64,000 nucleotides of DNA from Ruditapes philippinarum (Eukaryota), in NCBI RefSeq assembly GCF_026571515.1, contig NW_026860746.1, positions 1 through 64,000 on the forward strand. The letters are read 5' to 3'. Below the pieces are notes generated by a model that searched no databases, was not told the origin of the DNA, and saw nothing but the letters and a program-made list of their open reading frames with translations. This document shows positions 1,480 to 57,305 of this stretch, in pieces. The position numbers and the translations under genes were made by a program. Numbering within the stretch: position 1 is the stretch's first letter; every line of letters starts with the position of its first letter.

Positions 1480-4400
1480 GTAATTCATCATTCTTAGTAA
1501 TGATTGGTATGACTGACTCAATTGATACTGTGGGTACGAATCTTGGCAGCCGGTCGCTAAATTTCCTACCATAAGACAGCTGTCAAGCTCACTGTTCAGA
1601 AGGGCGGTGATTCTACTTAATGATTATCAGAGATTCTAGCTTGCTCATGCATGCTTATAAATGCATCTCCTTCAGTGATCAAGCCTGAAACTTTTACTGT
1701 CTGGGGTCAATTTACCCTAAAACAAAAGAAAAACATAATTATTCTTTAGTGAACAAGTCTGAAACTTTTAATCAGGGTAAATAAACATGAATCTCATAGA
1801 AATATTTCCAGTTCCTACTTGTCAAAAAACCTAAGTGGACTCCCTTTAAGAGATGATAGTTTCGTAAATGACCTTTTCTCTAATTTTGACAGCATTTGTC
1901 ACTGATCTATCTTCTCAACATTGTTAATACATGTATAGATAATATTTAAAACTTCTGTATGAATAAATTGAGTGATTCATTCTTAGCTAGCATTTCCATA
2001 GAATAATTATAACATTTGGTGTCTGAGATATATTTCAAAGGGGGCGTATAAATGCCATTTATATACACTGTGGTGAACATTTAAGTATATCTTTACTCTT
2101 TAGCATAAATATAAATGTTGTTGTTGAGCATTTATAGGATGGAGAAAAACAGAATCCCTAAAGAAAGCTCAACACGGCATAATTGAAAATGATGCAGTTG
2201 ACTCTGTTCATAGACAGTACCGGAAAGTAGTTAGGATGCCCCTCAGGATTACAATGCTGAAACACTTGTAAATTGCTGAGTTTATATTATGAATACTTAT
2301 AATATGGTTGATTAAATTTTATATTATACTTAATAGGCTATTTCAAATTAAGAAAAATCGATTTTGCATGAAGGTTTCAAAGGCCTGTAAATGTGTACAA
2401 ATTTTTATGTCCACTCCCGGTATTGGGCTTCGTCCTGCTAACGTTGCCTTGTCTTGTTTATCTTTTTTCTTGTATTCTTGTTTTTCATGATTATTCTGAA
2501 ACAGATAAAGAATCCTTAAAATTTTTGGGATGTAATTCATGGAAGGGCACATGAGGTTCCCGCATATCCTGTAGCAAAGCTTGAATGGTCCCATATGACC
2601 ACAACAATATACATGTAACTAAAATCCCAACTTAAGGGGTCCATACTCTCAGTGCCTGAAAGGGCAGATGGACCTTTATAAGCATAGTATAAACAAAAAT
2701 AACTGTATTAAGAATTATTGTATTCATTGGTGACTTTGGACAATTTATTTCAGATGAAAATAATATAACTTGTTAACAGTCAGGGATATTTGATTTCCCT
2801 GACAAGATAGAAGCTTTGGGTCGATCAATAAATCAATTTGTAAACCTCTTGACATGCTTTTCGCTTAGAGATACTTTTAATTGATGAAAGCTGTTTTGTT
2901 ATTAATCTAATTGCAAGTTTAAGAGAAGTCGATTTTGTCAGGCTGTGATGCCATGTTATCTTTTATACAGGGCAAATTTGTGAAAAGTAAGCCGCAAAAA
3001 ATACAAAAAAATAATCGCCAAAGAAGTTTTGCATTGTAGCAATGAATGATGAATTATTTTTACAAAGAATTTAAAGGGACTCCACTGAGGTTTTTTGATT
3101 TGACGGTACTTGAAATATTTTTTCAAGATAATAATATTCAGTTTCATGTAGATAGTGCAAATTTTTTTATATTATTCAAACCTTCTGAAAAATGAGCCAA
3201 AATTGAAAAGTGTTTTTCACTTAATCAAATAAATAAGAGCACAAAAATTGATTTTTATTTTACTTCTGAGAATATTTCTTAATTATCTTCTGCATTATCT
3301 TTCTGTTTAAGTACCCTAGCTGTTCTATGTGAAAAATTCAGATTTTATGTTTTTAGGCTTTTGGACGTCAGTGGAGTTCCTTTAAGGTAATAGGGGAATG
3401 ATTATAACAGTATTGTTGACTGAAGGAGAAGCAAGATCTGATAATTATCCTCATGATTAATGGGAAATCATTTTGTGATTTTACAAGATCTTTGCTTCTT
3501 TCATGTTTGTTCACTTTTATCTTATTTGACAAGAAAAATTACCCTTGAAACTAAATACAAGATACTTTGGAACAGAAGGGTTTATGTCTTTTTGATGTGC
3601 ATGTTTGAATGTTATAATAAGATGTGAATTGTCCATGTGAATAGCCTTTTCAACATCAAAAGGTTTATGTTATTTGGGTTAGAATTAGCTGATTGATTTC
3701 TCTGGAAGTTCAGTGTGGCATAAATCTTAAATCACCAATAATGTTTGAAGTTAATGCTATGAAAACAATTTATGATGATCCTTTTGTTGCTGGTATCCAC
3801 TTTAAAGAAAGCAATAGTTTCTGTGAAAGAATTAAACTTATTTAAAGGTGTTATTTTTGTACAAAACAGATTTTCAATAAACTGTTTTATCATTCTGTGA
3901 CATCATTGGCATTGGTGTAAGACTGAAATATTGTGACAATGGTGTAAGACTAAAATGCTGTGATAATAGTGTAAGACTAAAATGTTGTGGCATTATTGTA
4001 GATTAAAATAGTCTGACAGTGATGTGAGACTGAAGTACTGTGACAAAAGTATATGCCTGAAATACTGTGACAATGATGTAAGATTGGGAGAGTGTGACAT
4101 TGATAAATGATTGATAATACCCTTACAAAAGTGTAAGACAGAAATAGTGTGATAGTGAAACATGGCTGAAATAGTGAGATTATGGTGTTAACAAAATAGT
4201 GTGACAAAAGTGTGTGACTGAAATACTGTCACAGCGATACATGACTAAAATAGTGTGACAAAAGTGTATGACTAAAATACTGTGACAAAGATGTCTGACT
4301 GAAATACCGTGACAATGATACATGCCTCATAGTGTGGTTGAACTAATGTGTGACATTGATGTTTAACTGAAATATTGTGACAATGGTTTATCAGGCTGAA

Positions 4401-7400
4401 ATATTGACAATAGTTTATGACTGTTATACTGTGACAGCAGTTTAAGACTTTAACACTATGACAGTAGTATATCAGGCTGAAATACTGTGACAATAGTTTA
4501 AGACTTTAATACTGTGACAGTAGTATATCAGGCTGAAATACTGTGACAATAGTTTAAGACTTTAATACTGTGACAGTAGTGTATCAGGCTGAAATACTGT
4601 GACAATAGTTTATGACTGTAATACTGTGACAGTAGTGTATCAGGCTGAAATACTGTGACAATAGTTTATGACTGTAATACTGTGACAGTAGTGTATCAGG
4701 CTGAAATACTGTGACAATAGTGTATGACTGTAATACTGTGATAATAGTGTATGACTGTAATACGGTGACAATAGTGTATGACTATAATACTGTGACAATA
4801 GTGTATGACTGTAATATGGTGACAAGAGTGTATGACTGTAATACTGTGACAATAGTGTATGACTGTAATACTGTGACAATAGAGTATGACTGTAATACTG
4901 TGACAATAGTGTATGACTGTAATACTGTGACAATAGAGTATGACTGTAATACTGTGACAATAGAGTATGACTGTAATACTGTGACAATAGTGTAGGACTG
5001 TAATACTGTGACAATAGTGTATGACTGTAATACTGTGACAATAGAGTATGACTGTAATACTGTGACAATAGTGTATGACTGTAATACTTTGACAATAGTG
5101 TATGACTGTAATACTGTGACAATAGAGTATGACTGTAATACTGTGACAATAGTGTATGACTGTAATACAGTGACAATAATGTATGACTGTAATACTGTGA
5201 CAATAGAGTATGACTGTAATACAGTGACAATAATGTATGACTGTAATACTGTGACAATAGAGTATGACTGTAATACTGTGACAATAGTGTATGACTGTAA
5301 TACGGTGATAAGAGTGTATGACTGTAATACTGTGACAAGAGTGTATGACTGTAATACTGTGACAATAGTGTATGACTATAATACTGTGACAATAGAGTAT
5401 GACTGTAATACTGTGACAATAGAGTATGACTGTAATACTGTGACAATAGTGTATGACTATAATACTGTGACAATAGAGTATGACTGTAATACTGTGACAA
5501 TAGTGTATGACTGTAATACTGTGACAATAGAGTATGACTGTAATACTGTGACAATAGTGTATGACTGTAATACTGTGACAATAGAGTATGACTGTAATAC
5601 TGTGACAATAGAGTATGACTGTAATACTGTGACAATAGTGTATGACTGTAATACGGTGACAATAGTGTATGACTGTAATATGGTGACAATAGTGTATGAC
5701 TGTAATACAGTGACAATAATGTATGACTGTAATACTGTGACAACAGAGTATGACTGTAATACTGTGACAATAGTGTATGACTGTAATACGGTGACAACAG
5801 TGTATGACTGTAATACAGTGACAATAATGTATGACTGTAATACTGTGACAATAGAGTATGACTGTAATACTGTGACAATAGTGTATGACTGTAATACTGT
5901 GACAATAGAGTATGACTGTAATACTGTGACAATAGAGTATGACTGTAATACTGTGACAAGAGTGTATGACTGTAATACTGTGACAATAGTGTATGACTGT
6001 AATACTGTGACAATAGTGTATGACTGTAATACTGTGACAATAGTGTATGACTGTAATACTGTGACAAGAGTGTATGACTGTAATACTGTGACAATAGTGT
6101 ATGACTGTAATACTGTGACAATAGTGTATGACTTTAATTCTGTGACAATAGTTATTGACTGTAATACTGTGATAATAGTTATTGACTGCAATACTGTGAC
6201 AATGGTTAATGACTGTAATACTGTGACAGTAGTTAAATATTGTAATACTGTGACAATAGTTTAATATTGTAATACTGTGACAATAGTTTATGACTGTAAT
6301 ACTGTGACAATAGTGTATGACTGTAATACTATGACAATAGTGTATGACTGTAATACTGTGACAATAGTGTAAGACTGTAATACTGTGACAATAGAGTATG
6401 ACTGTAATACTGTGACAATAGTGTATGACTGTAATACTGTGACAATAGTGTATGACTTTAATACTGTGACAATAGAGTATGACTGTAATACTGTGACAAT
6501 AGTGTAAGACTGTAATACTGTGACAACAATGTATGACTGTAATACTGTGACAATAGAGTATGACTGTAATACTGTGACAACAGTGTATGACTGTAATACT
6601 GTGACAATAATGTATGACTGTAATACTGTGACAATAATGTATGACTGTAATACTGTGACAATAATGTATGACTGTAATACTGTGACAATAGTGTATGACT
6701 GTAATACTATGACAAAAGTTTAAGACTGTAATACTGTGACAATAGTGTATGACTGTAATACTGTGACAATAGTGTATGACTGTAATACTGTGACAATAGT
6801 GTATGACTGTAATACTGTGACAATAGTGTATGACTGTAATACTGTGACAAAAGTTTAAGACTTTAATACTGTGACAATAGTGTATCAGATTGAAATACTG
6901 TGACAATAGTTTATGACTGTAATACTGTAATATTGGTGTGACAGTGATGTGTGAGAGGAATAATATAATGTATGGCATAATTTATTGTTACAATGATGTT
7001 GATATTGACAGAAAAGGAAAGTTCCTGGATCTCTGATTTTAAAACATTAAAAATGAGTTTGACATAATGAAAATTATGAGCATGCCTTTAGAATGACCTT
7101 TATTTGTATCAAATGTGTCTGATTTATTTTGCAGAGCTTTGCAGATTGTAAGGGAGAACAACAGTTTTGGATTTGTAATAAAGGGAAGTAACCCAGCATA
7201 CATAGAGACGGTTGATCCTAATGGAGCAGCAGAGAAAGGAGGTCTTCAACCAGGTGACTTTGTCATCAAACTGAATGGAATAGATGTGAGGTATATATAT
7301 TGTTGTAATTGTTAAAGATTCATTGAATAGTAGCTATAAACGTTTCTTTGATTTACATAAAAAAATTTGGTCTTTGGATTTACATAACTTGCCTAATGAA

Positions 7401-10400
7401 TGTAATTGTTAAATCCTATGTGGCAGAGCATTGAAGGTTGCAGGCCACAAATCCCTTGCCTCTCACTGCTATTGGTTCAAATCCCATCAGAATCTTTGGA
7501 TTATTTAAGTGAGGAAACTATCCTGCTGTCTCGCTGAAGGTCAGTGTCTGCTCTGTAAGTCCTATACCCCTAGTTAGAATTTTTTGGAATATGGTTCATA
7601 TTTGCATCTTTACAATGCAATTTGCAGAACTGACACATCCACTGTGTTGGCTCAAGGTTATATGTCATCATTGAAGGTGAAATGTCAGAATTTTCAAGAT
7701 ACTTTTCGAACACCTACAATAAATAGAGATGATAATTGTTACAAGCAATAATTCATTTAAAAGTTCAGTCAAATGGGATTATAAGGTTTTGAATTGTTTC
7801 TTTTCCTTTTCAGAAAGTGTAGTCATGCACACCTGGTGCAGTTATTACAGGATAGTGGTACAGCTCCAATTTTAGAGGTTTTACGGTGTGACCAAGAGGA
7901 ATGTAAGAATATTTAAAAAATTTGTGTAATTTAATGCACTTATATAATTATTAAGAACAATTATATTTTTTGCATATCTAGAGTCAGGGGTTTAATTAAC
8001 AATAAAGATAGTTTTGTTACTATTTGAGAATATTCTGAAGAGATAAATATCTTAGAAAAAAAGAAAAATTCCATCCAAATAAGCCATTTATAAAAGAACA
8101 GAAATCTCTGAAGAAAAAAAAGCTGTAAAAAACAAGAGACATTCCTGAAAAAGGCAGATATTTTCCTGGGATTAAAATTGTTCAGTGTAATATTAAATTG
8201 GCTAAAAATAATTTTCATTTAGCGAAACAAGAATTGCTATTTAGTTCCATCATATCATGAATAATGTAATGTGATGTTGTTACATTCGACTGACTTTGTT
8301 GCTTTCAAATTACATTTGCCTGGAATTGGATGAACAACATTCATTTCCTGTCTCTAGACATGTTATTGTAATGCAATATGTGAACTTATATAGTGAGTGC
8401 AAGCAATTAAGTCTAGGATCTAGATATCTCTATCACAGTGATACCGATAGGTTGTTTTTGTATTTTCTGATCGCAAGATCAGTAAATACATAGCTAACAT
8501 CCACGGTCTAACACAAATTTTCCTAACAGACCTAACAACGCAAAGTAGTTCTCACTCAGAACTGCTTAAAAACCAGCAATTTTAAAAGAATAATTTTTAA
8601 TGTATGCATTTAACGAATTACAGTGCATTAAAAGTTTAGAGTAGTCAATAGAAATATGAGGTTACAATCACACATTTTGCGGATGAATATCTTTTTTACC
8701 CAATGAAAAATGTTTGGCTATTTCCGTAAAGCTTAATCAATGAAAATGCTATTTTTAGCTATGTCGATTACCGAATACTCCAGAGCGTAGTACATGTACA
8801 CATAAATCTGACTGTCGAGTAGTGGCATATATACATGTCGTACTGTTTTGGCGAGAAGATTTTCGCTAAATTATTTTCATCCGTGTTAAACAACAGGTTT
8901 ATAGTGAAGAAAATACCTCGAAATTAGTAAGGATTACAAACACGGAATGGAAATTCTCAATTTAGAATTACAATGTATTTGTTATTATTCAAGCTACATA
9001 TGTATTACTTCACCGTGGTGCAGAGGTAGCGCGCTCGTTTAGGGTGTGACAGGCCCAAGGTTCAAACCCTAGTCGAGGGCAACTTTTTTTTTTGAAGTGC
9101 CTTTTTTAAGGAAGTAGCCGATAAAGTATGGTTGCATAAAAAATGAAAATGATTTTTTGATGCAACTCTAGTCATGCAAAATTCCATATGTATCAATCTC
9201 AAACTGTTACAGACGCAGTCGCTGCGTAAGATTAATTATAGTATATAAAATAAACTTATATAGGAAAATACATACAGATAGTCAGTATGATTTAGATTGC
9301 AAAGATCAGAAAATACCACAGAGGTTGCAGCCCTTTGATTTTTATGAGTTTTAGAGTTTGTTGTTTGATTTTGAGATGACAATGACCTTTGGTGAAGGTT
9401 ATTCACCAGTCAGTTGTAACCCAATCCTACCAAATGAAGCCATTTTTTGGCCCATTATCGTAGAATTTTCGGTATCGATCCATAGTATGTACTTTAGTCA
9501 TCAGATTTGTAGAAAATACAGACAAATGGTAGAAGTAAACAGATTGAAATCTAGCCCAACCTTGATAATACTAAAAAACATCATGGTCCCAGATGATTAC
9601 TCATTCTTTAGTGTAGCAATGGATTGTAATAATCTCGGTAATATCATAAAATACAATTAAAATTGAGGCTAATAGATCACTATCTATGGCATTGTCTGCC
9701 CCCATGAAGAAATAAAGAAATAAGAATAGGGGGGGGGGGGCATCTAACTGTAAACTAAACAAAAGAGAACAATGAGGTTTAATATTCTGTTACAATAAAG
9801 TAAGGGGCCTAGCCTCTATCAAACAAAAGAAAATAACGAAAGAAATGGCCCCTTATTTAAATTCAGCTAGATGTCCATCTGTATGTCTGAAGACAATATT
9901 GGTTTCTGCAGGATAACTTTTGAATGATTGTGTTTATGCCTGGCGTGTATGTATGTTATACCAAAAGACAGGTTAAGTTCAATTTTGGATGCAATCAACT
10001 TCAATTAACTAATATCTAAATCTGTTTTTCAGATCCATACAGCTCTGGGGCCCAAGGTTCAAATTCTTCCGCATCATCAACTTCGAGCCATGCCGAGTCA
10101 GACTGGACAACACAAGATAATAAACTTATAGTTGACAAGGAAGGGAGGACGTACCTTGAAAGAGTAAGGTCCCAAAATAACTTATCGTGGATGGCAATTT
10201 TAAAATCTTAACTTACAACAGATTTTTGGGTTTCTGATAAAATGTAAAAAAATTTTAAACATATCTTTTCAAATTTTGCATTCTAAGGTCTGTGTGAAAG
10301 CCTACTTAAAGTTCACAAATTTGCCCCAATCAAACTGATTATCATTAAAAGATTAAGTGCTACAGTGCCTACCAGTCCAAGTGGTTTAGGTTGTTGACTT

Positions 10401-13400
10401 CAAATCACTTGTCTCTCACCTCTGTGGGTTCAAATCCTGTCAGAAACATCGGATTTAAACTTACGGAAGGTCAGTGGTCCTAAAGGTGTCTGCCTGAAAT
10501 CAGGATTACCTAAGGTCCTCATCCACCATCATGAAGCTGGTACATATATTCACATTTTCTCTGTCTGTGTGACATTAAATTCATCAAAAGTAAAACAAAA
10601 ATGATAGCTTGGACAATTTTAAGCATGTCACAGAAGCACTGAAAATCTTTATAATGTTCCTTAATTCACAGGTGGTAGGGGGGACATAAGATATTTTTAG
10701 TTTTCTGTATTTAATTGTCACAAAAAAGTCTTTCCACCTAAATAACAGCCTTCAGACTTCACAGATTTTATATTATTACCCTTCCAGATTTTTTCCGCCT
10801 TTTTGATTGGATATTGATCACCCGAAAGAAATTGATATAACCGAGCCAGACGGGTAATATACACACTAAATTTCCCCGTTGGGTACCCAACGTTGTAAAC
10901 GACATGCGCTGAGGTGATGCGCGTACGGTTCGATTTTACGCGGTGTAAATTCCGATTTACAAGCACTTTTTAACTGTCAAATGATAAATATTTACCAAAG
11001 TAGAGTAATGATACAAATTCCCATCAGTATTGAAAACAAATATGACCTTGTGAAAGCTTGATATTAATTACAAAAAAGTGCTTTCAATAGACTACTCCTT
11101 TTCTCTTGTTTACATTCGTTAGGTACGGGAAAATACGTCATGTATTTATGTGACGTCATGTTGTGATGAAGAGGTACCCTAAAGGGAATCTTATTTCGAC
11201 GTTTCATTTGAAACAGCAATGATTTTTTTAAAAAATCGTCTAAACTCGGCAGGGGAAGGGTAATAAAATTATTATTTTGGTTTTGGAGTGATATATGTGG
11301 ATATATTACCTGCCAAGATAAAATATCACCCTCGCCTAACGGCTCGGGTGATATAAAATCTTAGCAGGTAATATATCCACATATATCACTCCAAAACCAA
11401 AATAACATATAATATTTACCTACCAACACACTTAGAGATCACAAGGTCGAAGGTCAAGGTAGTGCTTGTTTTATATTGATCTTTATATGTTTCTTCAAAT
11501 GTGTTGAGTAGGGCATTTTAGGATTTGAAAACCATTCCAATTTATTTCAGATCTAACAATCAAATGCTGCAAGATTTTAGAACCTTTCTTATTTTTTAGA
11601 TTTAAAAAAAAGAAGCTGATAGTGTAACAAAATCTTGTAGATCTATTTAAGCCCTGCATTATCAGAGTTTAACAGGACTTAACAAATTTTTTATAGTGCT
11701 ATATGTTTATGAGCACAAAAATGTCATCAAAAATCAACAAGCAAGACTAATGAGTAATTTTTTGCAGGCAGAATTTTTGCTAACCACTAAGGAAAGGTCA
11801 AAGGTCAAGAAAGCATGGATAGAGTATGAAAGCACTAGGTAAGAAAAAAAAATCTTATAATATATCTAGTAATCTTTTATAATACGCCAAGTTTATAAAG
11901 TGCTATTTTCAAGCATATGTACCCTGTTAATTCTGTACAAATTAAAGAAATTTTTATATGGATTTGCCCAGCTTTGAATTTGAAACAGTTCATTCACCAT
12001 GAGTTTAAGGGATTTCAATATTAAAGTACAAATTTTTAGCTACCAACAGTATAGAGCTTGGTCAGACTGCTTGGATGTGCAGGCATCAGTCTGTACAGTC
12101 AGACCTGGGGTTTTAGCGGTGACAAAGACTAATCACTTTCAGTTCCAGCAGGTTAAGGGTTAAATAAATCTCTTTTTCATTTCAGTAACATAGTGGAGTT
12201 GTTTGAATCTGTTTCTGCTGTCCTGGACACGCCCTCCAAGAAGACATTATGGATGTTTATCTTGGCAAGACTTTCACCACCTCATCAACAGTATTGTATT
12301 AACCAAATTTCCCTGCCTAGAGACATTCTGTTAGGTAAGGTCCAAATTATCCTTTCTTAAAGTTATTTTGGGCTTTACAAATTCTTTTATTCCTCAGTGA
12401 CATTTTGATAGTCTTATATTGGGGTGTCCATGGCTGAATTGTTAAGGTTGTTGATTTAGAACTACATGTACTTGTCCCTCACTGCAGTGGGTTTGAATCC
12501 CACCAGAGACTTTGGATTCTTTCATATGAAAAATTTATTGCATTAGCTTACAGAATGTCAGTGTTTCTACTTGTATGCTCACTCATTCCTGAAATAAAGC
12601 ACAGAGGGGCAACTGAGGGGCACCAGTTTAGCTGAAAAGTGGCCATATGAGACAAACAAATGGATTGATAATGTATAATTCTTTGAGATGATAGGTTCAG
12701 TCTTACATTTGGCTAGCTATATAAATAATACATAAGGAATAATAGGCTTCCTTGACAGAGTAGTTCGGTTCATTGGAATGCCATTCACTGCTGTTGGTTT
12801 AACTCCCACAATGGAGGCTGATTTTTTTGTGTGAGGAAGCTAACCAGTGCCAGCTAACTTAAGGTTTGAGGATCTATTCAAGTGTCTGCTTTAGTCTGAA
12901 AAAAATCTGAGGTCTCTTCCTTATCATTAATAGTGATCAGTTACCACAGAGTTATATATTTAAACCAACCAAGACAGAAAATAGAAAAATACCTTTGTTG
13001 AAAGCAATTTAAAATAAGTGTCTACATAATTATTATTTTCCATATAGGTGTTTATTAAAAAATCACTCATACATATGCTTGAACAGATCAAAAAAGGTTA
13101 AATTGAGATATAGTAGTAATGTTTTTTGTACAAGCAAATTTACAGCAATAAAATGATAGTTTAAGAATACCTGTTGCAATAGTAGATTATTATATCAGTA
13201 ATAACCACTGTTTAAGTTAGAAGCTGCTGTTTATAAAACATGTACATCTGTTTGATATTTTTAGACAAAAGTCTCTTTTGTTTTTTTTATTTTCAGAATG
13301 CATAGAAAAAATAGAACATGGCAGAAATCACCAAAACTGGTCAGGAGATGGTAACATATGTTTTATTTTATTATTCTATTGTATAAAGTCAAAGATATAG

Positions 13401-16400
13401 AACATTTATCATACTTTCCTTTTGAGTTTCTCAAAAAAGCTTTGAATCATCAAACATGTTCATTCATGAAGCTCAATAGGGACTATAAGGGAGAGCCTCA
13501 GACTCATAATTCAGGGATGACGGTGAAGTGACAATTGTTCTTGGACATTGGTTTTAATTGTTATTTGTCTCTCACTACTAATATAGAAATCATGTGGGAT
13601 TAGAAGTCCATGGATCGCTGGTTCTACTATTGGGCGAAGTGAAACATCCTTGTGACAACTGATATCAGACATTGAGCCTAATGGTCATTTGTCTCTCACA
13701 TCTGATTCAGAAATCATGTGATATTAATAGTCAGGTCACTTTTGGAAAAATTGGTAATTACTGGTTAGTTAAGCAAGGAACGTTGGTTCAGTGGACTATG
13801 TACATTTTCTAGGGGTGACCATTAATCATGTATTATTATCAGTGTGTATAGTACTGGCTGCTGACAAGTATAAACAGGGCACATAATTATAATAATATTT
13901 TTTCTGTCAGACTTGAAGCCCACTATAACAGCCTGGTCTCTTTAGAAATTGATAACCATTTATACTCTTTAGAATGTTTTTATATTGCATGCATGAAAAC
14001 CAATAGCCTATGGTTTAGACCTGTAATATCTGGCTTACAAAAGAGAGAGTAAGACCAGTTTTCTGATATTTCTTGATAGAGTTGGGAAAATTCAAAAAGA
14101 AAAGATAATTGTTGTTTTTAACAAATTTTACATTAAGGTAGTTCTTTCACAGGTTTTTCTTTATATTTTTTTGTTGCTATGGTTTCAGGTGATACAACCA
14201 GTACATCTGCGTGGGGCTCCCGCAAGTCCAGCATCAAAATATCATCATTTCAACAGCAGGTAGAGTATCTCCTCACATCGCGAGAGAGGTCCATGCTGAA
14301 AAAAGCCCTTCAACTCTACTCTGAAAACAGGTATATATTCACTTTATCGCCGATTTTATGACTCTGTAAAAGTGGTATTGCACAGCTGTGCATATATTTC
14401 GCAGTGACGTCATTAACATTGTAAAACATATTTAGTGTAAAAACATGCTAAATGTTACGGTTATAAAATGAAAGACTGTCTTTTGCACTTTAAACAGTCT
14501 TTAATTTGTTTATGTGATAAATATAATATTAAATTCCTATAGGTTCATTACTGAATTTATTGAACTGGTTGATTTGTTCAATGAATTCAGTATTGAACCT
14601 ACACTCATTTAATATCCTCTATTTATTCACTCCTAATGGTATTTGTACAGTCATTTAAAATGAAGTGACTGACAGAGACTTTGGATTCTTTCTAAGAGAA
14701 GATTATCAAGCTAGCTTACAGAAAGCCAACTTGACCTTGTATGTGAAATAATACTCGAAGGGTCACCTGAGATTGTGGTCCTCCACCTGCGATCCCTAAA
14801 AGTCATCATTTGACCTCTTCAGTTGTGGCATGACCTAAATTCCAAACATTAAATGCTTTGAATATACATAAACCTTGTTAACTTAATTCCAAACCAACCA
14901 GTACATGTGTACTTTTTTTTTTATTCTAAGAAGCATAGAAGATAGAGACCTTTAAAATGTTTTTGAAATATATTTTAAGATTTAACAGTCTCTTAGCCAA
15001 AGATTTAGCCTGTGTCCTCCAACTTTCAAAGGAGACTTTTTTCTCACTTAAATTTCAAAGCAGTGGCTTATATCTAAAAATGAATTTGATAGTGGAAGAA
15101 AGCAAGGTCTTTTGCCAGTATTAACAGTTTAATTCTCAATGTGGCTGTGACCTTGACCTTTGACCTAATTTAATTTAATTTTCAATGTATGTTGTGACCT
15201 AGACTTTTAATATGAAAATATATCTAATAGAAAAGACATGTATAACTTGCTGTTCCATTTAATTTTCTGAATACTTTTGGTGATAATAACCCCTTTAGAA
15301 ATGACATGATGATAATGATAATATTGAACCCCCTTACAAATGGCAATGGACTGTTCCATACAAAAAAATGAACAAGTCCATGAAATATATTCTGCAATAT
15401 GAGGCTAAGAGGAAAGAGGAATATTTCTATTTCAGAAATGTTGATAACTTGATTGAGGATCTGGATGTCATTCTAGACACGCCCTCTAAGAGGACATTAT
15501 GGATGTACATCATACCTCTGTTAACACAGATGCATCAAGATGTTGTTCGACAGAGAGTAGGAACAAAACAGGTGTCCAGTCTACAAACTACGTCAGGTAA
15601 AAATGGTCATAATTTAGGAAACTCAGTAACCATTGATCTAGGACATTTAGAGTAATGGTCGTTTGTCTCTCCTTGCTGATTGAGAAATAACATGTGGGGT
15701 TCGAAGTCTGTTATTTGTGGATTGATAATTACTAGTTTGTTATCAAGGAAAGCCGGTTTAGTGGATCATCACTTAACTACTAGGCCTTTGCTCTCTTTAA
15801 CCCTTTTCCTGCTACATATCTTAAATGCCCTTGTCCATCTTTCAATCTGGACAACTTTTCATTACTTGAAGGGAAAATTTCAAAATGTTAATTGACTGAA
15901 TAGCTAAAATTGAGGACCATGATGAGATGAAATGTGCTTGCTGATCTTGGTCTGCACTGGTCGCATAGGCTTAATCAGCAACATTTCTGTAAGGGAGACA
16001 TGCAAAGATAGTAAATAATAATATGGTCCAATGTTACTTTAAAAGCTGTCTTAAGGTATAATTTTAGAGATTTTTATTTCAATTTTAATAGTTGATTCTC
16101 AATGATAAGGCAATTTTTTAGCTTTTTGGGGTATGGTGGGTGTTTTGATATTATTATTTCTTTTCTTATTTTCCTCTTTTGTGTGTTAAACTTTTTTGTA
16201 ATACAAATCTTAATATAATACTCTAATGTTTATTTTGTTTTAATGAAATCATATGTAAAATACCTTGCTATAGGTATGTCCTTATGTGATTTTTAACATT
16301 CACTTTCATTATGATATTGTTTTCAGAGTCTGAATCTACTTTACCAAAGAAATCCACATCCAAAAAGGTACATGTAAGTTTATTCATTATCTTCCTGACT

Positions 16401-19400
16401 TTATTAAGGACTGCAGTACAGGACTGCAGATTGCAATGCATATTTCTGATTTAGTTCTGTCTTTTGTTGTAATATTGTTATTAAGACCTAACTGTAAGTC
16501 TTTCCAAAATGTGGGGAAAAACACCGTTAGAAATAAAGTCTTTAAAATAATTTATCTCATTACTAATAATTATGACAATGTCTGAAATTAATATGAGATT
16601 TGTCGGCTGAGTATAATAATGTCTAAGCTCTGGCAATCATGCCGAAATGTCCCGAATGTCTGGGATTGTCCCAGAATTCTAGTTATTTCCACAGAGGTAT
16701 CCCAAACGTAAACATTTCCTGTAAAATATTATTAAAGTTCTTACCAAACATTACCTACAACCTTATAAAATGAATAACCAATGCCTTCCAAAAGAAACTT
16801 TGTAATTTCTTTGAAATTGCACTTTCGATGAAGTAGATATTCTTTTATTAAATTTTATACTCTTAAAGGTTGTTTTCATTTTCAGACAAAGTCTTTGTAT
16901 GAATTTCCAGACATGCTAAGTCTCGTGATCTCAGCTGGGCCCATTCAGAAGTTAACAAGAGATAAAATAGAGTAATACAATGCTAATATTATGGAAGCTT
17001 TGGTTATCTCTGAGTTCACTTATGAGAATGAGTCATAGCTCAATATCAGACTGTGTCAGCTCAATATTACAAAAGCTTAGATGTCATTGTAAATATAAAT
17101 ACAAATGGTAAATATTGTCTCAAGCTTTATAATATATATTCCAGCCGTATATGTCATCTGATGAGGAGCATGATTTTATCTCTAGATCTGGGGACAGAAA
17201 ATCGAAATCCAAACCTACTGGTATGTATTTCAAAGCTCCTAGCTTTTGAAAAGTCCTATCTTGATAGAAAGAACTATATGATAAAGGTACTGAAAGTTAG
17301 CCTCTTTAACAGTTAAGGGTTTAGACAGCAGACTTAGGGGTTATTGTCCTCTATTATGGCAAAGCCCTGTTAGTATGTATGCTATTACTTGGCAGATTTT
17401 TGTGGATTTATTTTGATTGTGTCAGTATAAACTTGCAGGTATATGTTTCAACTATTACTAATTCTGTAGATGCATTTAGACTACATCGAATCTGCAAACA
17501 ACTGTAGTTCTTGAGTGAACCGAATCTAAAAGGGTTTCATCTAAACCTTACCAGAACAATCCAATACCTATGATATTTTATCAATGTCCTGTGATTCATT
17601 TATTAATTAATTAGGGGTTATGAAAATGTAAAAATGTTTGTCTGACAATTTTCTGTCACTTGTTCACTTGTGAGCTTATTCAAATCTGTATATATCATTA
17701 CTAATACAGCTCCCCTTGGTGGATTAGACCTGTCAATCATTAAAGAACTAGAGGAGACACGAAGAGCTGTACAGGAAGTTAAAGAATTTTTGACTAAAGG
17801 ACAAAGTCCAGGTACAGTATAAAAAACTTACTTAAAATAATACAAAACCTCTATATCACCATGACATATAACACTTTCATCTCCCTTATGTAATTATAGT
17901 ACATTGTACTGCTTGACTAAAAGCCAATTGGATGATTGAATTTAATTACCCTCATTCAAAGTTAAATAACTATTATACTAGTCAAAGGTCAAACTGATTT
18001 AGAAAATATGTGTAAATAATGTATATCAACATTTTTTTTTCCATTATTACGAATTTACCAGAAAGTGTACACATTTTCAATGTAACTTAATGATACGATA
18101 TAACATTTCTATGAATTTGCTGTTAATAGGTACTGCGAATTCACTTATATTCGTGGGCATGAAAGTTCGTGGTTTTATCAAAACGGGCATTTTCGTGGTT
18201 CTTAAATTCGTGGATTTTCGTTTTCTTGTAAAAAAAAAAATTCAGTAACCTAATGCAAAGTAATTTTAATCGCCGAACATTGTTACTTACAACATGTACA
18301 TATCTTTACTTGTCACACAGCGGTTGTCAATAAATTTAATCCTTGCCTCTGGGTATAACTCTAATACAGCACAGTTACTGCCGATAATTGACTGCAATTA
18401 ACACATTTATGTGACATGATATGCACCTCCATTGGACACACTGCCCCTGTAATTCGCCGATGTAAACATCGCATAATTTATAATAATAGCAATAGCACAA
18501 AAACTGATTAAAAATTATATAAACTGGAGCATTCAAAATCAACGAAAGAAAGTACAATAAATCTGTTTTAGCGATCGTATTTTTTATAATTTTGTGTACT
18601 TACGACATTAATATCAAAGACATTTTTTTAAAATTAATAAGAGCAAACTGAGAATTTTTATTAGCGCTAATTATTGCACTGCCTGGGTTCCCATATTAAC
18701 TCGATTATGTCAAGTATTCTTGTTAACACAATTAAGTCCTAGTAGACTACAACGATCAAGTATGTATATGCGACATTTGTGACAGTAAATTGAGGACATA
18801 TAATCGAGTTTTCTTTCAAGTTTCTTAAATATTGCAAACGGATTTAATATGTCACTAACCTGGTTATCTGTCTGTACTTACATTCATTTCACGAAATATC
18901 GGCCGGAAAAGAGCCGACGCATGTTTGTAATATATAGAACAGAGACAGGGTAAGAAGTATTTGTCGGGATAAAAGTTCGTCGGATCTTAAATTCGTGGAT
19001 TGACCTACCCACGAAAACCACAAAAATTCGTGCCCCACGAATAATAATGATTTTACAGGATATAGAAGTTGACTTTAAAACTTAATACTGTGTTATCTTA
19101 ATATTCAAATTTCTTACAGAATTTGATCGTGAGAATTTCAAGTATGTTACAGTTATTCCAATTGAACGACAGCTCCAAGAGTCGTCCTTACATTCACCAA
19201 TTAGTATACAGCTTCCCGGCCAAACAATTCCAATGACCTTGAACTCTCAAAATATTCCAGGGGTTTTAAATCCCAGTCAAAGACTATATTCAGCACAGGA
19301 AGTTCAAAACTTAGAGGGTAGACTCTTTTCACCTGTGTCAAATAGTGGCGTAAGACCACATTTAAGTGATTCTGGACCAAGAGTTAGATTTCCCGCTAAT

Positions 19401-22400
19401 TTCATGGGGTTTGAAAACACTGCTGAAAGTGATGATTCACCGCGGAGTCCACCAAGTTTTGTTATAGACCATGTGGACGAGAACAGTAGATTAAAAATTC
19501 CGCCAAATTTTATGACAAGTGGGACAGAAAGTGACAATGAGATTGAGTTAGAGAGGCGGGCCCAATCTCAGCTGCTAGTATCTAAATTTGCTAAAATGGG
19601 AGGTATGTATCACTAGGGCTGTCATTGACAGAAAATATTGTATCGATATATTGAAGAGTAAATATTAACAATATATTGAGTTAAAATACATTTATATATT
19701 AAGCTATTATACAGTTAAGTTATTAAACAGGGTCTTTCAAATTTCTATTTGAAAGACCCTGGCTATAATAGATGATAAACTCTGTCATCAAAATGTTGGA
19801 TATGCTTGGTTTAGATATATAAAAATGCAACTGACCAGAAGAAACAGTAACTTCTGAATATTATAAATATTAAGAAAATGAAATTGCTGTTATAATTAGT
19901 TAATGGAACGTTGGTGGCTGTACTCGGGTGCCAGTTTGTGCCTGAAATAAAGCATGAAGGGGAACCTGAGGTCTTCCTCCACTAGAAAAGCTGGAATGTA
20001 GCCATATGACCATTATTGTGTTGGTGCCAAAGATATAAAGAAATAATTTATATTTAAACAAGCTTTGAGAATACAAGATCCATAGATAATGGAGAATTGT
20101 ATAGGTCACATTTTTACTCAATAAATATAAACATCTCTTCCTCAAAAAACTTCCAAAATTTCTGAATTAATCTGCTCTGAAAGTTTGTTAAAACACAAGT
20201 TTTGGATGAAAAACTAGGCAGTGACAATTTCTGCAGTATATAATGTAATACATTCATGTACATGTATTTATTTGTATTTGGTATGTACATTTAAATTTGT
20301 TTGCAAGATTTTGATAACATACAGTTGTTTCTGAGATTTTCTTGAATTCATTTATTTATTTGCAAGAAATGTGAAAAACATTTGAAATTCAGGTGAAGAT
20401 TCATGAAATTCAGTTTTAATTGTCTATGGTTTTGTTTTATGAAGCTCATACTATGACCTTGTTCCTCATGTGTTACACATATAATTTCAGGGGACACATT
20501 TAACAGACATGCATTGACAGCCTTAAAACAATTGGACGCAGCAGTCGCAGCGGAAGTGTCTGACCTTGAGAACAGTGGCGATGCTAAGAGAAAATCAGCA
20601 GACGTCAAAGTGGCGCCATCTATAAATGGGGAGACAACTTCGTCTGTACCTGCTCCACCTCCACCTCCCCCACCACCAGGTTTGTTGCATATAATTAATG
20701 AAATTGATAGTTACCATTTCTTTTATTCAATCATAATTCCAACAAATTTGTGTAATGAACTGCTTTGTACTTGGAACTGTCCTTTTTCAATTTTATAGAT
20801 GGTGATATGAAAGTATTAAAATATGAATTAAGGTAAGACTACATGTATAGAGAAATGCAGCCTGGTCTGGTATTTGATAGAGATAGGACAATGTCTGCCA
20901 TTATTAACATCAGATGCCTTCACCCAAGTCATAGATTGAAAGAGTTTACTCTGTGTGTAATATGCATATTTGAAATGAAAGTATGTTATAGGACGGTGAC
21001 CTAAATTTTTTTTCATTATGATTCTCTGTAATGGAGCAATGTTTAAAAAGAATCTGCAAGCTAGTGTATTTTTTTCATCTTTAACTTCATATTTCATCCT
21101 AAGTTTTGTAGAAACAATTTACTACTCCTGTCTCCTTATTAGACTATCAACATATTGGTTTAAACATATTTATTTAAGCTCGATTGCGAAACAAGTTCTT
21201 GCAACTCATATAAATCACTTTCTAGTCTGCTTCCAGGAACCAACCAGTACTGGTGTCATATGAAGAAACATGGTCATAACCCGAGTAGGGCTCAAACCCA
21301 TGATCTCTGGGTTGAGAGGCAGACACCTTAACCACTTGGCCACCTTATCACCCTTATCAACATATTAATTTGGTTTGATATGTTTACAGTTGCTCCTCCT
21401 CCTCCAGCACCTCAGCTGCCAGGAACCAGCTCACCAGATAAATCACAGATGAATGTGAAGAGAATTAACTGGGAAAAACTTGACCAACAAAGAGTGGAAA
21501 ACACTGTTTGGGAACAGGTACTGTTAACCTTTTACCCCATGAGCATATTGTGAAAAATGGCCGTTTCCATTGAAAAGCCTCCTGTTACAAGTTCAAACTG
21601 CTATGAAATTATGAAAAATGCTTCAACACTGATGAAACTTGCCACAAGTGTTGACTTAGACCATAGCCTCTGTAACAATATGCTCAATTGTAAATTTCCT
21701 GTTACCATGGCAATGGGGGACGTCTCAAAATTGCCAAAAATCCCTATTTTGCATTGCTTCTTTCCATCAAAACTGATTTCAAAGTGCTGCAACTTCTGAA
21801 TGAAAAGGCTTTTCAGCATTGGTTACAAGATCGACCTGAGGCCATTTTTAGCCTGTCACATGTCCAAAATTTTCTTGGAGATGAGGGGGACTACCGCCCC
21901 CCTTCAAACCCCTCAAACAGAAGGGGGCACATCCCCCTTCTGGCGACCCTCTGATGCCCGGGCAGCGCCGAAAATGTGGTCACTTTTTTAACACCATTTC
22001 TCAAACGAAAAACAGTGTTGTGGGTCTAAAAATAGGGCATTTTTTTTACTGTTTGAGGCCTCAGAAAAGGGGGGGGGGGGGGGAAAGCAGTCAAAACACG
22101 TCAATATGAGGGAAAAGGTTAATATAGCTTGATGATTAAAATTGTATTTTTTAATTGCACACTGTTTTGAAAAACAGCTACTGTGAATATAAATTGATAA
22201 TTAAAATTGCTATTTAAAATTGCATTGTAAATTAAGCACTGTTTTGGAACAGCTAGTGAAAAGATATGATTGTCATTGTATTCAATCAGGTACTGAATGT
22301 AGCTACGTACATGTATAGGTCTGTTGGAAATATGAAATATGAGAAAAGCATGATTTTTTTTAAATACTATCATGGAACTGCAAGGTAACCAAACAGGTAG

Positions 22401-25400
22401 TGTAAACAGGATTATACATGTAGCTGAATAAAGCATTCAATTTGGAACTGGTACTGAAAAAAAAAATTCAATGTGTACTTATAGAATAACAATATGTGAA
22501 CAAATATTTTTTGTGTAATAACTTGGCTTGGCTGTTTAGAAATTGGATCTTTCCAGAATTCAAATATCCAAAATTATCTAAAATTAATCTCAAACACCAG
22601 TTGGGTCGGAATATTATACAAGATTCATTTTGTTTTTTGAGACATAATATTTGTTAAAGAAATATCAGTTAATATTTTATAAAGAAATATCAGTGACTTA
22701 TAATACAGAGGGATAAGAAGCTCAAAAAATAGAACATTTTCCCATCCAGGCTCACAATCCCTTGCACGAGATTCATAGGCCCTTGAAGTTGATCGATTTC
22801 ATCCATATTGTTTTACGTGACCGAACGTTTGAGTTGATTATTGATCTCTTATTGTTATTCATTTAATTTTATATATATTTACATATTATAGTCATATTTA
22901 TTCACAAATTTGAAAATTCAAGCTTGCGGGATAATTAATCGCTGATACAGATTTTAAGTGTATGACGTCAAAGCTGACTCTCTGTGGAAATATGAAGCAG
23001 ATTAATGAAGCATTTAAGAAAATTAAAAATTTGAACATGTTCTTGTAATTATTTACTGAGTTGTACTTGTTAATTTACTTTCAACGAATAATTTGAGTAC
23101 AATTTATGATAAAGTATTAATTGTGATATAATATACCTGTGATGTTACAGATTGGAGAAGCTACTGATTTACAAGATGTTGTCCGGTATCTAGAACTCGA
23201 GCAATACTTCTCCACAAAATCTCCAAGACACAGTAAGTTGATATTTCTAGTACCTACATCGTAATTTGATATTGCACCGAAATAGTAATTTTTTATCTCC
23301 CAGACTTAGAAAAATTTGATACATGTATTTCTTCAATTAAGTAATTTGATGTCTCACTGACATAAAAAGGTGATATCAATTTTGTCAAGCATCAAGGGAT
23401 TTTGAAACAATTTGGCACAATTGTGTAGCTTCAAATGAGATTGTGTGTCATATGCAAGACCTAGGCTCCGAGGTCAAGGTCACACTTAGAGGTCAAAGGT
23501 TACCTTGTCCAGCATATAACTGTTATGCATCAAAAGATTCTGAAATAACTTGGCACAAATATGAAGCTTGATGAGTTGGTGTGTCATGCACAAGACCTAG
23601 ATCCCTATTTTCAAGGTAAAGGTCACACTTAGAGTCAAAGGTCTGTCATAAGGAAATCTTGTTGGGCCCATAACTCTGTCATGTATGAAGGAATTTTAAA
23701 ATAACTATGCACAAATGTGTAGCATGATGAGATCGGGTGTCATGTGTAAGACCTGGTGTCAAGGTCATAATAAGAGGTCAAATGTCAGCAATCAGTGTGA
23801 ATATACAAAAGAAACTGTTTTTTATCAACATTTTTTGTTTATCTTTTTTTTTTAAGGTATTTTATTGCAAAAAAAATGGTGTCCTAAGATATGTGGCAGG
23901 AGCATTCATGTTTTTCAGACACATTTATAGTAAAAGATATTTTGTAAGTAATAAAGCTATGGTTTCTAAAAGCTGAACTTGAAGCCATAGTATCAAATTA
24001 AAAATTATACCTTATTATGCTTCCCGAAGGGTGAGGTTATAGTCGCCACTTTGTCCGTCTATCTGTCCATCCTCACTACCACATGGAGATAGGGGGCCAT
24101 CTAACTGTAAACTTAACAAAAGAGACAAATAAAATTCATTTCGTAACAATAGAATAAGGGGCCTTGGCCCATCTATTAAACAAAAGAAAATAACAATAGA
24201 AATGGTTCTTTATCACTATTTGGTTGCATGTCCATCTGGTTGTCTGTCTGCCCCTACGCATCTCTAGTCCGGGACATAACTCTGTAACAACAAGAGGTAT
24301 CCACATGAAATTTTAAGAGTAGATAGAATTCATTGGGTAGATGATTGTGCAGTGCACAAGAACCATAACTCTGCCTTGCCTAATTTTGGAATTACTGCCC
24401 TTTGTTCATTTTTTATACTTTGAACTTTGTCCAGGACATAACTCTAAAACTATAACAGATACATGTTTAAACATGAAACTTTGTAAGTAGAGAGATCTCT
24501 TTGGGTAAAAGTGCAGTGCAAAAGAACCATAAGTCTGTCTTGCCTAATTTTGGAGTTATTGTCCTTTGTCCATTTCTAAACTTTAAACATTGTGCAGGAC
24601 ATAACTGTAACTATAAGAGATATCAACATGAATCTTTGTTGGTAGATAGATGTCATTTGGTAAAAGTGCAGTGCAAAAGAACCATAACTGTCCCTTGCCT
24701 AATTTGGAGTTATTCCCCTCTGTCTATTTCTAAACTTTGAACCCAGGGCATAGAAACTTTTAAGGTAGATAGATCTCTTTGGGTAGAAGTGCAGTGCACA
24801 AGAACCATAACTCTGCCTTGCCAAATTTTTGAGTTATTGCCCTTTGTTCATTTTTATACTTTGAACATTGTCCTTGACATAACTGATAGTATAATAGATA
24901 TGAACAAGACACTTTGTAGATAGATAGATCTAATTGCATAGTGCATTGCACAAGAACTGTAACTCTGCCTTGCTTAATTTTGGAGTTATTGCCCTTTGTT
25001 CATATTTACATTTTGAACTTTGTCTGGGACATAACTCTGACACTATAAGAGGTATACTTTTCTGTGTCCAAAATCTATTCAGGGAGCATCCGGTTCATCC
25101 TGTTCTTGTTTTAACTTAGTTTTAAGAAAATGAATTTTATTTCTGTTTGTTATTTTAGAAACCAAACTAACTGGTAAGGATTTATTCCTCAGGATAAATT
25201 TTTATTATAGACTGACTTGTATTTATAATTTGCATAATCATTTATATATTGCTTTATAATGTCAATTTATTTAACTATTTCTTTTCCTAGACATGTTGTA
25301 AACAAATTGTATTTGCTTTAAAAGGGTGTAAAGCTATAGAAGGTTGAAATGATGCATTTTATGTGTTTTTCTTATTCTTATGGTCAAATCTTACAAAAAA

Positions 25401-53184: not shown

Positions 53185-53425
53185 GAATAGCTGAATCGGT
53201 TGAAGCGCTAGACTTGTAATCTCGACATTGTGGGTTCGATTCCCGGGATGGCCAACTAAAATTACTAAACAGACTTTCGGATGAGACTTGAAATCGACGT
53301 CCCGTATATGCACCTAAACACTTGGCGCGCTAAAGAACCAGGAGAATCTTATCTTTTTGTGTCTGTAACTTGCTCTGTCCGCTAAAATGACTAGAGTACA
53401 CAAACGGTGGCGAGTATAAATAAAC
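53185..53425 (+). mobile_element. tRNA-headed SINE with Deu/Nin-like core
   Basis: A box TAGCTGAATCGG, B box GGTTCGATTCC, core CTTTCGGATGAGAC..AAATCGACGTCCCGT. Confidence 0.7.
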
Positions 53426-56658: not shown

Positions 56659-57305
56659 TTTTTGTTGGTTTGGGTTGTCAGAACAAACAAATAATGGTAG
56701 CGAAATTTCAGACTCTAATGCTGTTAATTGCAAATGCCGAAAGTAGTCCGCTTTTTTGAAGCGGTTACTTCCCTTTATATGTAACACAAAGGCCGAAAAA
56801 TTCAGGGGAGATCACTGCGTAAATATGGTCACATGACAGGCGCATTAATTTTCAAGCAAAATAATTCCCGAATGGTCGAAGATTTCTAATATTGTTTTAT
56901 TCTTTAAAGATATACATGCTTATAGTAAGCGCCATGATTATTTACACAAGTTAGCGTCGTTACAAACCATAATTTAGAATAATATGGTTTTCTTCAGGCC
57001 GTTTACATATAAATTCGCCGTGGCCGAGGGGTTTGCGCATTCACTTAGGAAGCGAGAGGTCTCGAGTTCAAATCCCAGTTAAGGCAACTCATTTTTTTTT
57101 CAAATTGTTTAAGTCAAATAAACATTGGATTGAATATAAGTGTTGCAATTATAAAATATATAGTCTTATAGCCAATCTACTACTATTAAAACGCTGGAAA
57201 GCATTGGTGGCACTATACAAAAACAAATTGTTTTACAATCTCACAACCTTCACCTTTCTGACATTCTGAGACCCAAACAAATTCAGCGCCTTCTGTGCTT
57301 TGATT
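56659..57305 (+). mobile_element. Helentron-like non-autonomous element with tRNA-like cassette
   Basis: 5' TTTGTTGGTT..AACAAACAAA hairpin, 3' CCCAAACAAA plus AGCGC-cttct-GTGCT plus TTGATT. Confidence 0.55.
57014..57100 (+). pseudogene. tRNA-Pro(AGG)-derived Pol III cassette
   Basis: TGGCCGAGGGG A box; CTTAGGAAGCGAGAGGTCTCGAGTTCAAATCCC resembles the tRNA-Pro 3' half; T9 run. Confidence 0.68.

Follow-up and report, generated by a model that had tools for sequence, protein, structure and literature searches.

Results

A HINE with a tRNA-derived unit on the plus strand of the window

The window analyzed here is a stretch of 64,000 nucleotides of Ruditapes philippinarum DNA (contig NW_026860746.1, positions 1 to 64,000 of the forward strand). 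At 8455..9340 its plus strand carries one copy of a young subfamily of a HINE, which we call family 1. The element opens with a T-run (8455-8459) and a 5' subTIR of 13 bp (8460-8472), followed by a nearby inverted copy of this subTIR (8477-8489) that is complementary at 12 of 13 positions; both the subTIR and its inverted copy are conserved across copies. At the other end we found a 3' subTIR (9304-9316) that is the exact reverse complement of the 5' subTIR, an imperfect palindrome (9323-9332) and the 3' end of the element, which lies inside a T-run (9339-9340). The HINE-type ends that the original prediction had placed at 8456..9340 are therefore all present, including the subTIRs, the inverted repeat and the palindrome, and sharp common ends were found in all 30 aligned loci. 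Tandem core repeats had been described as missing from the interior; accordingly, Tandem Repeats Finder (score of at least 80) detected no array inside the element. No open frame of at least 110 aa overlaps it.

The interior is occupied by a short module that begins with upstream DNA at 8868..9008 (left edge approximate), delimited by its homology to a second family described below. Its last bases include a mutation hotspot at 8992..9000, that is, at -17 to -9 from the first base of the unit, which is likely the Pol III start region and has a counterpart at the same place in host tRNA-Pro genes. The hotspot is followed by a degenerate tRNA gene (9009..9081), closest in sequence comparison to tRNA-Pro(AGG), in which the acceptor and T stems are partly broken. 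It contains an A box (9016..9026), AGG at the place of the anticodon (9041-9043) and a B box (9059..9069). A trailer resembling the one found in host tRNA-Pro(AGG) genes and a run of ten T (9084-9093), the predicted Pol III terminator, complete the module (9080..9093). The distance from the unit to the 3' end of the element is 180-320 bp.

Several other features were noted in the window. Likely exons of a formin gene (20457-20798 and 43909-44391) lie further along on the same strand as the element and encode a proline-rich stretch and an FH2 domain (43909-44388). A 27-bp minisatellite (~95 copies) and arrays with units of 155-162 bp, the latter typical of repeat-bearing HINEs, are located at 4366-6928, 27483-28406, 24267-24742 and 44682-45471. 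At 7420-7540, 10373-10500 and 53188-53300 there are tRNA-like heads with B boxes whose body lacks a T-run; these are likely ordinary SINEs.

Copies, insertion and class of family 1

The genome searched comprises 1.4 Gb. A DNA search with the family 1 element returned 2,817 candidates, and all 40 that were scored are long matches at 90-97%. These 40 further long matches and the sharp common ends of the aligned loci mark the element as a repeat and not a chance arrangement. Both ends were exact in 30 of 30 aligned loci, and the sequence outside them differs. A genome-wide check with the 3'-end pattern gave 1,180 matches with one mismatch, and a looser form gave 1,186 exact matches, while the reversed controls gave none, confirming the expected abundance of the element with more than 1,100 3' ends. 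The window copy had also been labeled copy 1. A second unit does exist in the window, but it lies in a different family, and a BLAST search with the first element found no second copy.

In 58 copies analyzed at their junctions, T-runs are present on both sides and repeats at the junctions do not exceed the length seen in mismatched pairs, indicating that no target-site duplication is made. Where family 1 is nested in family 2, the site was opened between two T, and head-to-tail copies, an indirect sign of rolling-circle transposition, occur at C1568 and C14363. Helentrons and HINEs are rolling-circle DNA elements, and the elements of families 1 and 2 likely move as DNA. According to the definition given in the available text of Thomas et al. 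(PMC4067079), HINEs have subTIRs of 12-15 bp, one lying within a few bases of the 5' end and the other ~40 bp before the 3' end. With its subTIRs, inverted repeat and palindrome, its TT insertion without duplication and its noncoding interior, family 1 has the anatomy of a HINE.

The genome contains 94 matches to the Helitron Rep domain (PF14214). Among 20 of these 94 with long frames, inspected with up to 10 kb on each side, none has the ends of family 1 or 2 as its own. A Helentron at C7914 was considered as the autonomous partner and rejected, since its ends are of a different kind and it was itself inserted into a copy of family 1. It is an autonomous element of ~11 kb with a frame of 1,644 aa (G000:C7914, ~12,400-26,700; L535, L551), and the same family 1 copy also houses a tandem-repeat HINE of another family. 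Longer members of family 1, of 2.1-4.7 kb, share common inserted DNA downstream of the unit (L364-L368; G000:C118, C120, C330, C83, C1114). Supposed sister families with the same ends but no cassette were likewise discarded, as they turned out to be longer copies with insertions.

Identity of the tRNA-derived unit

The unit had been predicted to be tRNA-Pro(AGG)-like. Pro(AGG) is indeed the best of the seven isotypes compared, both for the units in the window and for the reconstructed roots of the two families; an Rfam tRNA search of the genome gave mostly Arg, Lys and Thr genes, which limited the comparison to these seven. However, the likeness is not clean: tRNA-Val fits the 5' third of the unit better (20 vs. 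14 of 27 positions), and in four of five other copies tested Val or Arg fits as well as Pro(AGG) or better. A Pro(AGG) parent is therefore probable from the sequence but not certain. Alignment to the genome's own tRNA-Pro(AGG) genes gave 75-80% over 54-72 nt (E 2e-7). The window unit is identical to host tRNA-Pro(AGG) at 48 of 72 positions; for the two reconstructed roots the figures are 54 of 72 and 52 of 73.

Scored as an Rfam tRNA, the unit reaches 16 bits (cut-off 29) over model positions 8-63 only, and in an Rfam scan of the window at E 0.1 the unit had no hit. ARAGORN did not call the window copy, and it called many other copies tRNA-Pro or tRNA-Thr. The D and anticodon stems can still pair, yet the unit lacks the full cloverleaf of a functional tRNA-Pro, its anticodon loop varies between copies, and it does not fold better than shuffled sequences (z -1.3, RNA parameters). 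Judged by these features, the unit is a degenerate tRNA gene and not a working tRNA.

An 8-base trailer starting at position 72 matches 10 of 22 AGG, 4 of 11 CGG and 0 of 41 TGG host genes, which would favor capture of a genomic tRNA gene over a retroposed tRNA or the head of a SINE. A run of at least four T follows the unit in 181 of 185 copies. The sequence features of a type 2 Pol III gene are thus in place, namely an A box, a B box at tRNA spacing and a run of at least four T. A and B boxes recruit TFIIIC, and their established consensus was used for scoring the box sites.

Other tRNA-like sequences were observed in the genome during these searches. Clusters of tRNA-Pro genes (L184-L213; G000:C1103, C1241) include some Pro bodies with a changed anticodon that ARAGORN called Gln or Ser. 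Tandem arrays resembling tRNA-Arg(TCT), with a period of ~162 bp, lie at G000:C24:218165-219203 and C9003:13888-20817 (L460-L477) and account for 106 overlapping ARAGORN calls. Near a Helitron Rep locus (L559:5962-6300; G000:C6487) there is a pair of tRNA-like units, 254 bp apart, with A box, B box and T-run; they resemble odd tRNA-Thr(GGT) calls and are possibly another element-borne Pol III unit.

A second family and a composite element

A profile of the family 1 element detected one diverged unit at 57014-57086 (nhmmer E 4e-16), the only other unit in the window. It lies on the plus strand in a HINE of ~650 bp (56659..57305), family 2, which has different subTIRs and its own inverted repeat and hairpin pair, and whose 3'-end pattern has 3,091 matches in the genome. 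Counted with its T-run, the family 2 unit spans 57014..57100 and comprises the unit proper (57014-57086) with an A box (57021-57031) and a B box (57065-57075), followed by a run of nine T (57092-57100). The two families have in common a homologous module of ~140-150 bp of upstream DNA, the unit and the T-run, whereas their ends differ. Their reconstructed roots agree at 14 of 15 box sites vs. 44 of 57 other sites of the unit.

Family 1 inserted at a fixed site in family 2 forms a composite of ~1.5 kb that has spread as one element with two tRNA-like units (L246, L248, L257, L259, L265, L272, L273, L314-L328 and others, e.g., G000:C24:226400-227660). Its inner unit has a variable anticodon loop and the strongest upstream mutation hotspot of all (8-fold), while the outer unit displays little hotspot.

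The unit lies inside the two families wherever sampled

To the 3' half of the unit there are 3,144 pattern matches in the genome, and all 30 places fetched lie inside family 1 or 2. The same holds for 30 of 30 fetched places among the 767 matches to a narrower pattern of the unit. In the places sampled, the cassette thus does not occur mainly outside such termini, an outcome that would have spoken against the original prediction. Conversely, when copies were chosen by their 3' end alone, a unit was present within 1,350 bp in 107 of 120; eight of the 13 others were followed further, and six of them have a unit upstream of an insertion. The first 30 copies per family were taken in listed order, and later ones were chosen from the listed places (60/70 per family), with preference for copies that had not been sampled before.

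A pattern designed to catch SINEs that begin with this head and then continue differently had 107 matches, the contexts of the first 30 of which were fetched. Sorted by their letters, 100 listed matches consist of 71 tRNA-Pro genes, 28 single-base variants of the HINE unit and one that is neither. No SINE family with this head was found among the 107 pattern matches, which speaks against the unit being the head of an ordinary SINE. The predicted lack of a SINE body or tail was also borne out: the unit is internal, the T-run follows it directly, and there is no target duplication at the ends of the element. Neither terminal direct repeats nor a duplication were found, and a simple element has one unit, which sets these elements, in their present form, apart from TRIMp3 (Helenus). 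A scan of metagenome contigs gave 0 matches to the unit.

All 15 key box sites are intact in 101 of 147 copies of one family and 76 of 113 copies of the other. The proposal of a DNA-transposon family that disperses A/B-box units therefore stands as far as dispersal is concerned, with thousands of units lying between HINE ends.

Few box-breaking changes on shared branches

To assess selection on the boxes, trees of 152 and 114 copies were used, from which loci picked by their unit and a further 12 and 5 duplicates or hits below 55% of the model, respectively, were left out. Changes were divided into those on tips and those on shared branches, the latter having given rise to further copies, and were counted at the 15 key box sites. 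On tip branches, box sites changed at the neutral rate, with 47 changes vs. 40.5 expected and 49 vs. 50.5 in the two families. Since the tips are neutral, the host does not keep the boxes copy by copy.

On shared branches there were eight box changes, which is not significantly few (p 0.06-0.77), and five of them are transitions allowed by the consensus. When only box-breaking changes were considered, three were found on shared branches and 75 on tips, while 12-14 (14.1) were expected on shared branches (CMH p 0.006). This approximately four-fold depletion amounts to ~10 missing events, and the split into tolerated and breaking changes follows the known box consensus but was applied after the first result. 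The deficit has the same direction in both families. A sliding-pattern null gave P 0.003-0.007 and a base-matched null P ≤0.004; re-analyses in which weak nodes were collapsed, gap-rich and hotspot sites dropped or BLAST-picked copies taken out gave P 0.0015-0.005. A control for selection at the 5' end worked in family 2 only.

No box-breaking change was found in the A box on shared branches of either family; all three lie in the B box, in family 1, and head clades of 10, 4 and 2 copies. Lineages whose B box is broken were thus amplified, and an intact B box is dispensable. No constraint was seen in the remainder of the unit, with ratios of shared to tip changes of 0.21 vs. 0.23 and 0.17 vs. 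0.14, suggesting that the promoter and not the tRNA fold is kept; conservation of the fold was found neither in the shuffle comparison nor in the shared-branch changes. The original prediction expected boxes more conserved than their flanks and named decay at the neutral rate as a refutation. Landed copies do decay neutrally, so that at copy level the boxes are not conserved and the refutation applies in part; the depletion of breaking changes is seen on shared branches. Conservation on the very branches that make new copies points to a benefit for the element.

A mutation hotspot upstream of the unit

In the available text of Thornlow et al. (PMC6130373), a mutation peak 12-15 nt upstream of active tRNA genes is tied to transcription. 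In the interval used there, -20 to -1, we counted 114 tip changes vs. 44 expected and 138 vs. 54 in the two families, an excess of 2.6- and 2.5-fold, respectively. This interval ranks 5th of 782 and 3rd of 534 in the two families, and all better intervals overlap it. The excess involves all kinds of substitution, peaks at -17 to -9, a range chosen after seeing the data, and is 3.7- to 8-fold where significant. It reached significance in five of nine subfamilies and was weak and not significant in three small groups; in subfamily 1B, whose boxes are intact, the hotspot is absent (0 of 126 sites).

When the hotspot was assessed without a tree, four of six groups were positive, one of which (n = 7, broken B box) was inflated by a misaligned row. 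Alleles seen only once display no upstream excess, and at sites without a shared-branch change the excess in family 1 is 1.2-fold. The result for once-seen alleles is expected at recurrent hotspots, but it would also be seen if subfamilies exchanged sequence. Part of the upstream excess may therefore come from such exchange or from recurrent alleles placed wrongly on the tree.

Host tRNA-Pro paralogues of moderate divergence have a peak at the same place (24 of 148 vs. 22 of 346, p 0.001; 50 of 167 vs. 81 of 385, p 0.03), while near-identical pairs of host tRNA-Pro genes were flat, with 3 of 179 (18 close pairs) and 3 of 153.

Transcripts

In two runs of 150-nt cDNA reads and two contig sets, reads were found along the whole element on both strands, and they were least abundant over the unit. 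Coverage amounted to ~26-44 reads per strand over the unit vs. more than 2,000 at the 3' end, and the reads have no common starts or ends. Coverage of the unit is uninformative here, as short RNAs drop out of such cDNA libraries and reads from other subfamilies do not pass the 90% filter. In addition, ~70-90 reads per run skip 491 bp (window 8765-9257), including the unit, and represent a deleted form that lacks it and is transcribed through.

Discussion

The two indirect signals, depletion of box-breaking changes and the upstream hotspot, suggest that the unit is not dead cargo. We give slightly better than even odds to the explanation that the degenerate tRNA gene has a Pol III promoter which is still engaged and through which copies that retain it multiply more readily. 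At the DNA level, an ancestral element would have captured a tRNA gene of the genome together with its trailer. The unit would be loaded with TFIIIC and TFIIIB, and Pol III would produce an RNA of ~85-95 nt that stops at the T-run. Since this RNA would end far from the 3' end of the element, it would not be a transposition intermediate. Instead, the bound, nucleosome-poor and transiently opened DNA might escape silencing or ease access for a Rep/helicase acting in trans. Copies with intact boxes would then become donors more often, the promoter being helpful without being required, and Pol III factors would load on many copies in the germ line.

It is rather unlikely, although a serious alternative, that a tRNA gene was captured once and has been carried passively, with incidental Pol III activity and a deficit due to chance or imperfect trees. 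Gene capture by rolling-circle elements is known (available text of PMC5443660), the boxes decay neutrally in landed copies, subfamilies with broken boxes did spread, and the deficit rests on ~10 missing events and a split made after a first look. On the other hand, the deficit survives three nulls and three re-analyses with the same direction in both families, and the family roots agree better at the box sites than in the rest of the unit.

A host function at a few loci, where copies would be kept by the host as small-RNA genes or TFIIIC insulators and would also serve as donors, would produce the same deficit on shared branches with neutral tips, and thousands of intact B boxes are dispersed. 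We consider it improbable, as the deficit spans many separate lineages of two families, neither the RNA fold nor the anticodon loop is conserved, and no conserved single locus was seen in this genome. About the same low probability is assigned to an origin of the unit from an ancient tRNA-derived SINE or a Helenus-type LTR that inserted into an ancestral HINE; only its head would be left, and the boxes would date from earlier selection. Mixed tRNA likeness is common in SINE heads, and the mixed Pro/Val likeness of the unit is typical of them; Helenus LTRs with tRNA-like boxes also occur in bivalves (available text of PMC10886601). However, the T-run and the host Pro(AGG) trailer follow the unit directly without a body or tail, no free family with this head was found among the 107 pattern matches, five motifs of the unit have no match in the supplements to the papers on Helenus and on bivalve SINEs, and the deficit comes from the HINE trees and hence postdates capture. 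Least probable is a cloverleaf or hairpin of single-stranded DNA that acts as a signal in rolling-circle copying: a structural role of a tRNA in a Helitron has been speculated for Arabidopsis (available text of PMC10701932) and the D and anticodon stems still pair, but folding is no better than in shuffles, the stems are unconstrained on shared branches while box bases located in loops are constrained, and the unit lies well inside the 3' end.

The reason given for a Pol III promoter in a mobile element is that an RNA intermediate has to be made. An element that moves as DNA, keeps its boxes on donor lineages and makes an RNA of less than 100 nt would need another reason, e.g., to stay open or unsilenced. 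More tentatively, and with somewhat less than even probability, the elements may represent a DNA-transposon counterpart of SINEs and TRIMp3, in which a captured Pol III promoter works as a built-in chromatin opener that raises copying, seeds more than 2,000 intact TFIIIC sites and local mutation hotspots, and leaves a readable record of germ-line Pol III in upstream mutations. The units outnumber tRNA-Pro genes, counted by one exact pattern (87), ~35-fold, and could draw TFIIIC and act as scattered insulators. Thousands of near-neutral copies allow mutation at Pol III start sites to be read with unusual clarity, and the ARAGORN calls of tRNA-Pro and tRNA-Thr on many copies give rise to false tRNA genes in annotated mollusc genomes.

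Comparison with known systems

The full-text literature and paper supplements searched hold no description of such a family; Repbase, Dfam, subscription papers and preprint supplements were outside this scope, and the families may already be catalogued in Repbase or Dfam. Likewise, the available text of PMC10294476, PMC11481361, PMC4758252, PMC5139131, PMC5443660, PMC12001565 and PMC8010984 contains no precedent.

HINEs are well known in bivalves (available text of PMC7492417). As far as the available text of the respective papers goes, HINE, DINE-1, Cg_HINE, Pearl and DTC84 share with families 1 and 2 a 5' subTIR with an inverted repeat, a 3' subTIR with a palindrome, T-rich ends, TT insertion without duplication, a noncoding interior and nested or head-to-tail copies (PMC4067079, PMC7492417, PMC3879986). 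Families 1 and 2 differ from HINE, DINE-1, Cg_HINE, Pearl and DTC84 as described there in that a tRNA-derived unit takes the place of microsatellite or central tandem repeats. According to the accessible part of PMC3879986, DTC84 and Pearl lack complete Pol III A and B boxes, and the word tRNA is absent from the main text of PMC7492417 and PMC4067079.

TRIMp3 elements (Helenus, Ajax, Cassandra) are, in the available text of PMC10886601, similarly non-autonomous, carry a non-functional small-RNA gene with conserved boxes, occur in bivalves and inflate tRNA predictions; they differ in being LTR retrotransposons with PBS, PPT and duplications of 4-5 bp, whose promoter makes their own RNA. The elements described here have Helentron-type ends, and the T-run would end the predicted RNA ~250 bp before the 3' end. 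Bivalve tRNA-derived SINEs, as described in the available text of PMC11481361 and PMC4758252, also have a tRNA-like head with A and B boxes and reach thousands of copies, whereas families 1 and 2 have neither a central domain nor a LINE-derived tail or target duplication, and their unit is internal, with ~550 bp upstream and 250 bp downstream. The Helitron-associated tRNA-Cys cluster of Arabidopsis is, in the available text of PMC10701932, a single tandem array of near-intact tRNA genes at one site, and its link to the Helitron is speculative. In contrast, we found thousands of dispersed copies of a degenerate unit in two families, to which a test for selection could be applied.

Helitrons have reportedly spread binding sites elsewhere, such as ISX in Drosophila miranda and heat-shock elements in Caenorhabditis, which are said to serve Pol II regulation or the host, and extra-TFIIIC sites are found in repeats. 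In families 1 and 2, unlike in the ISX and heat-shock Helitrons, the signal lies on the element's own donor lineages.
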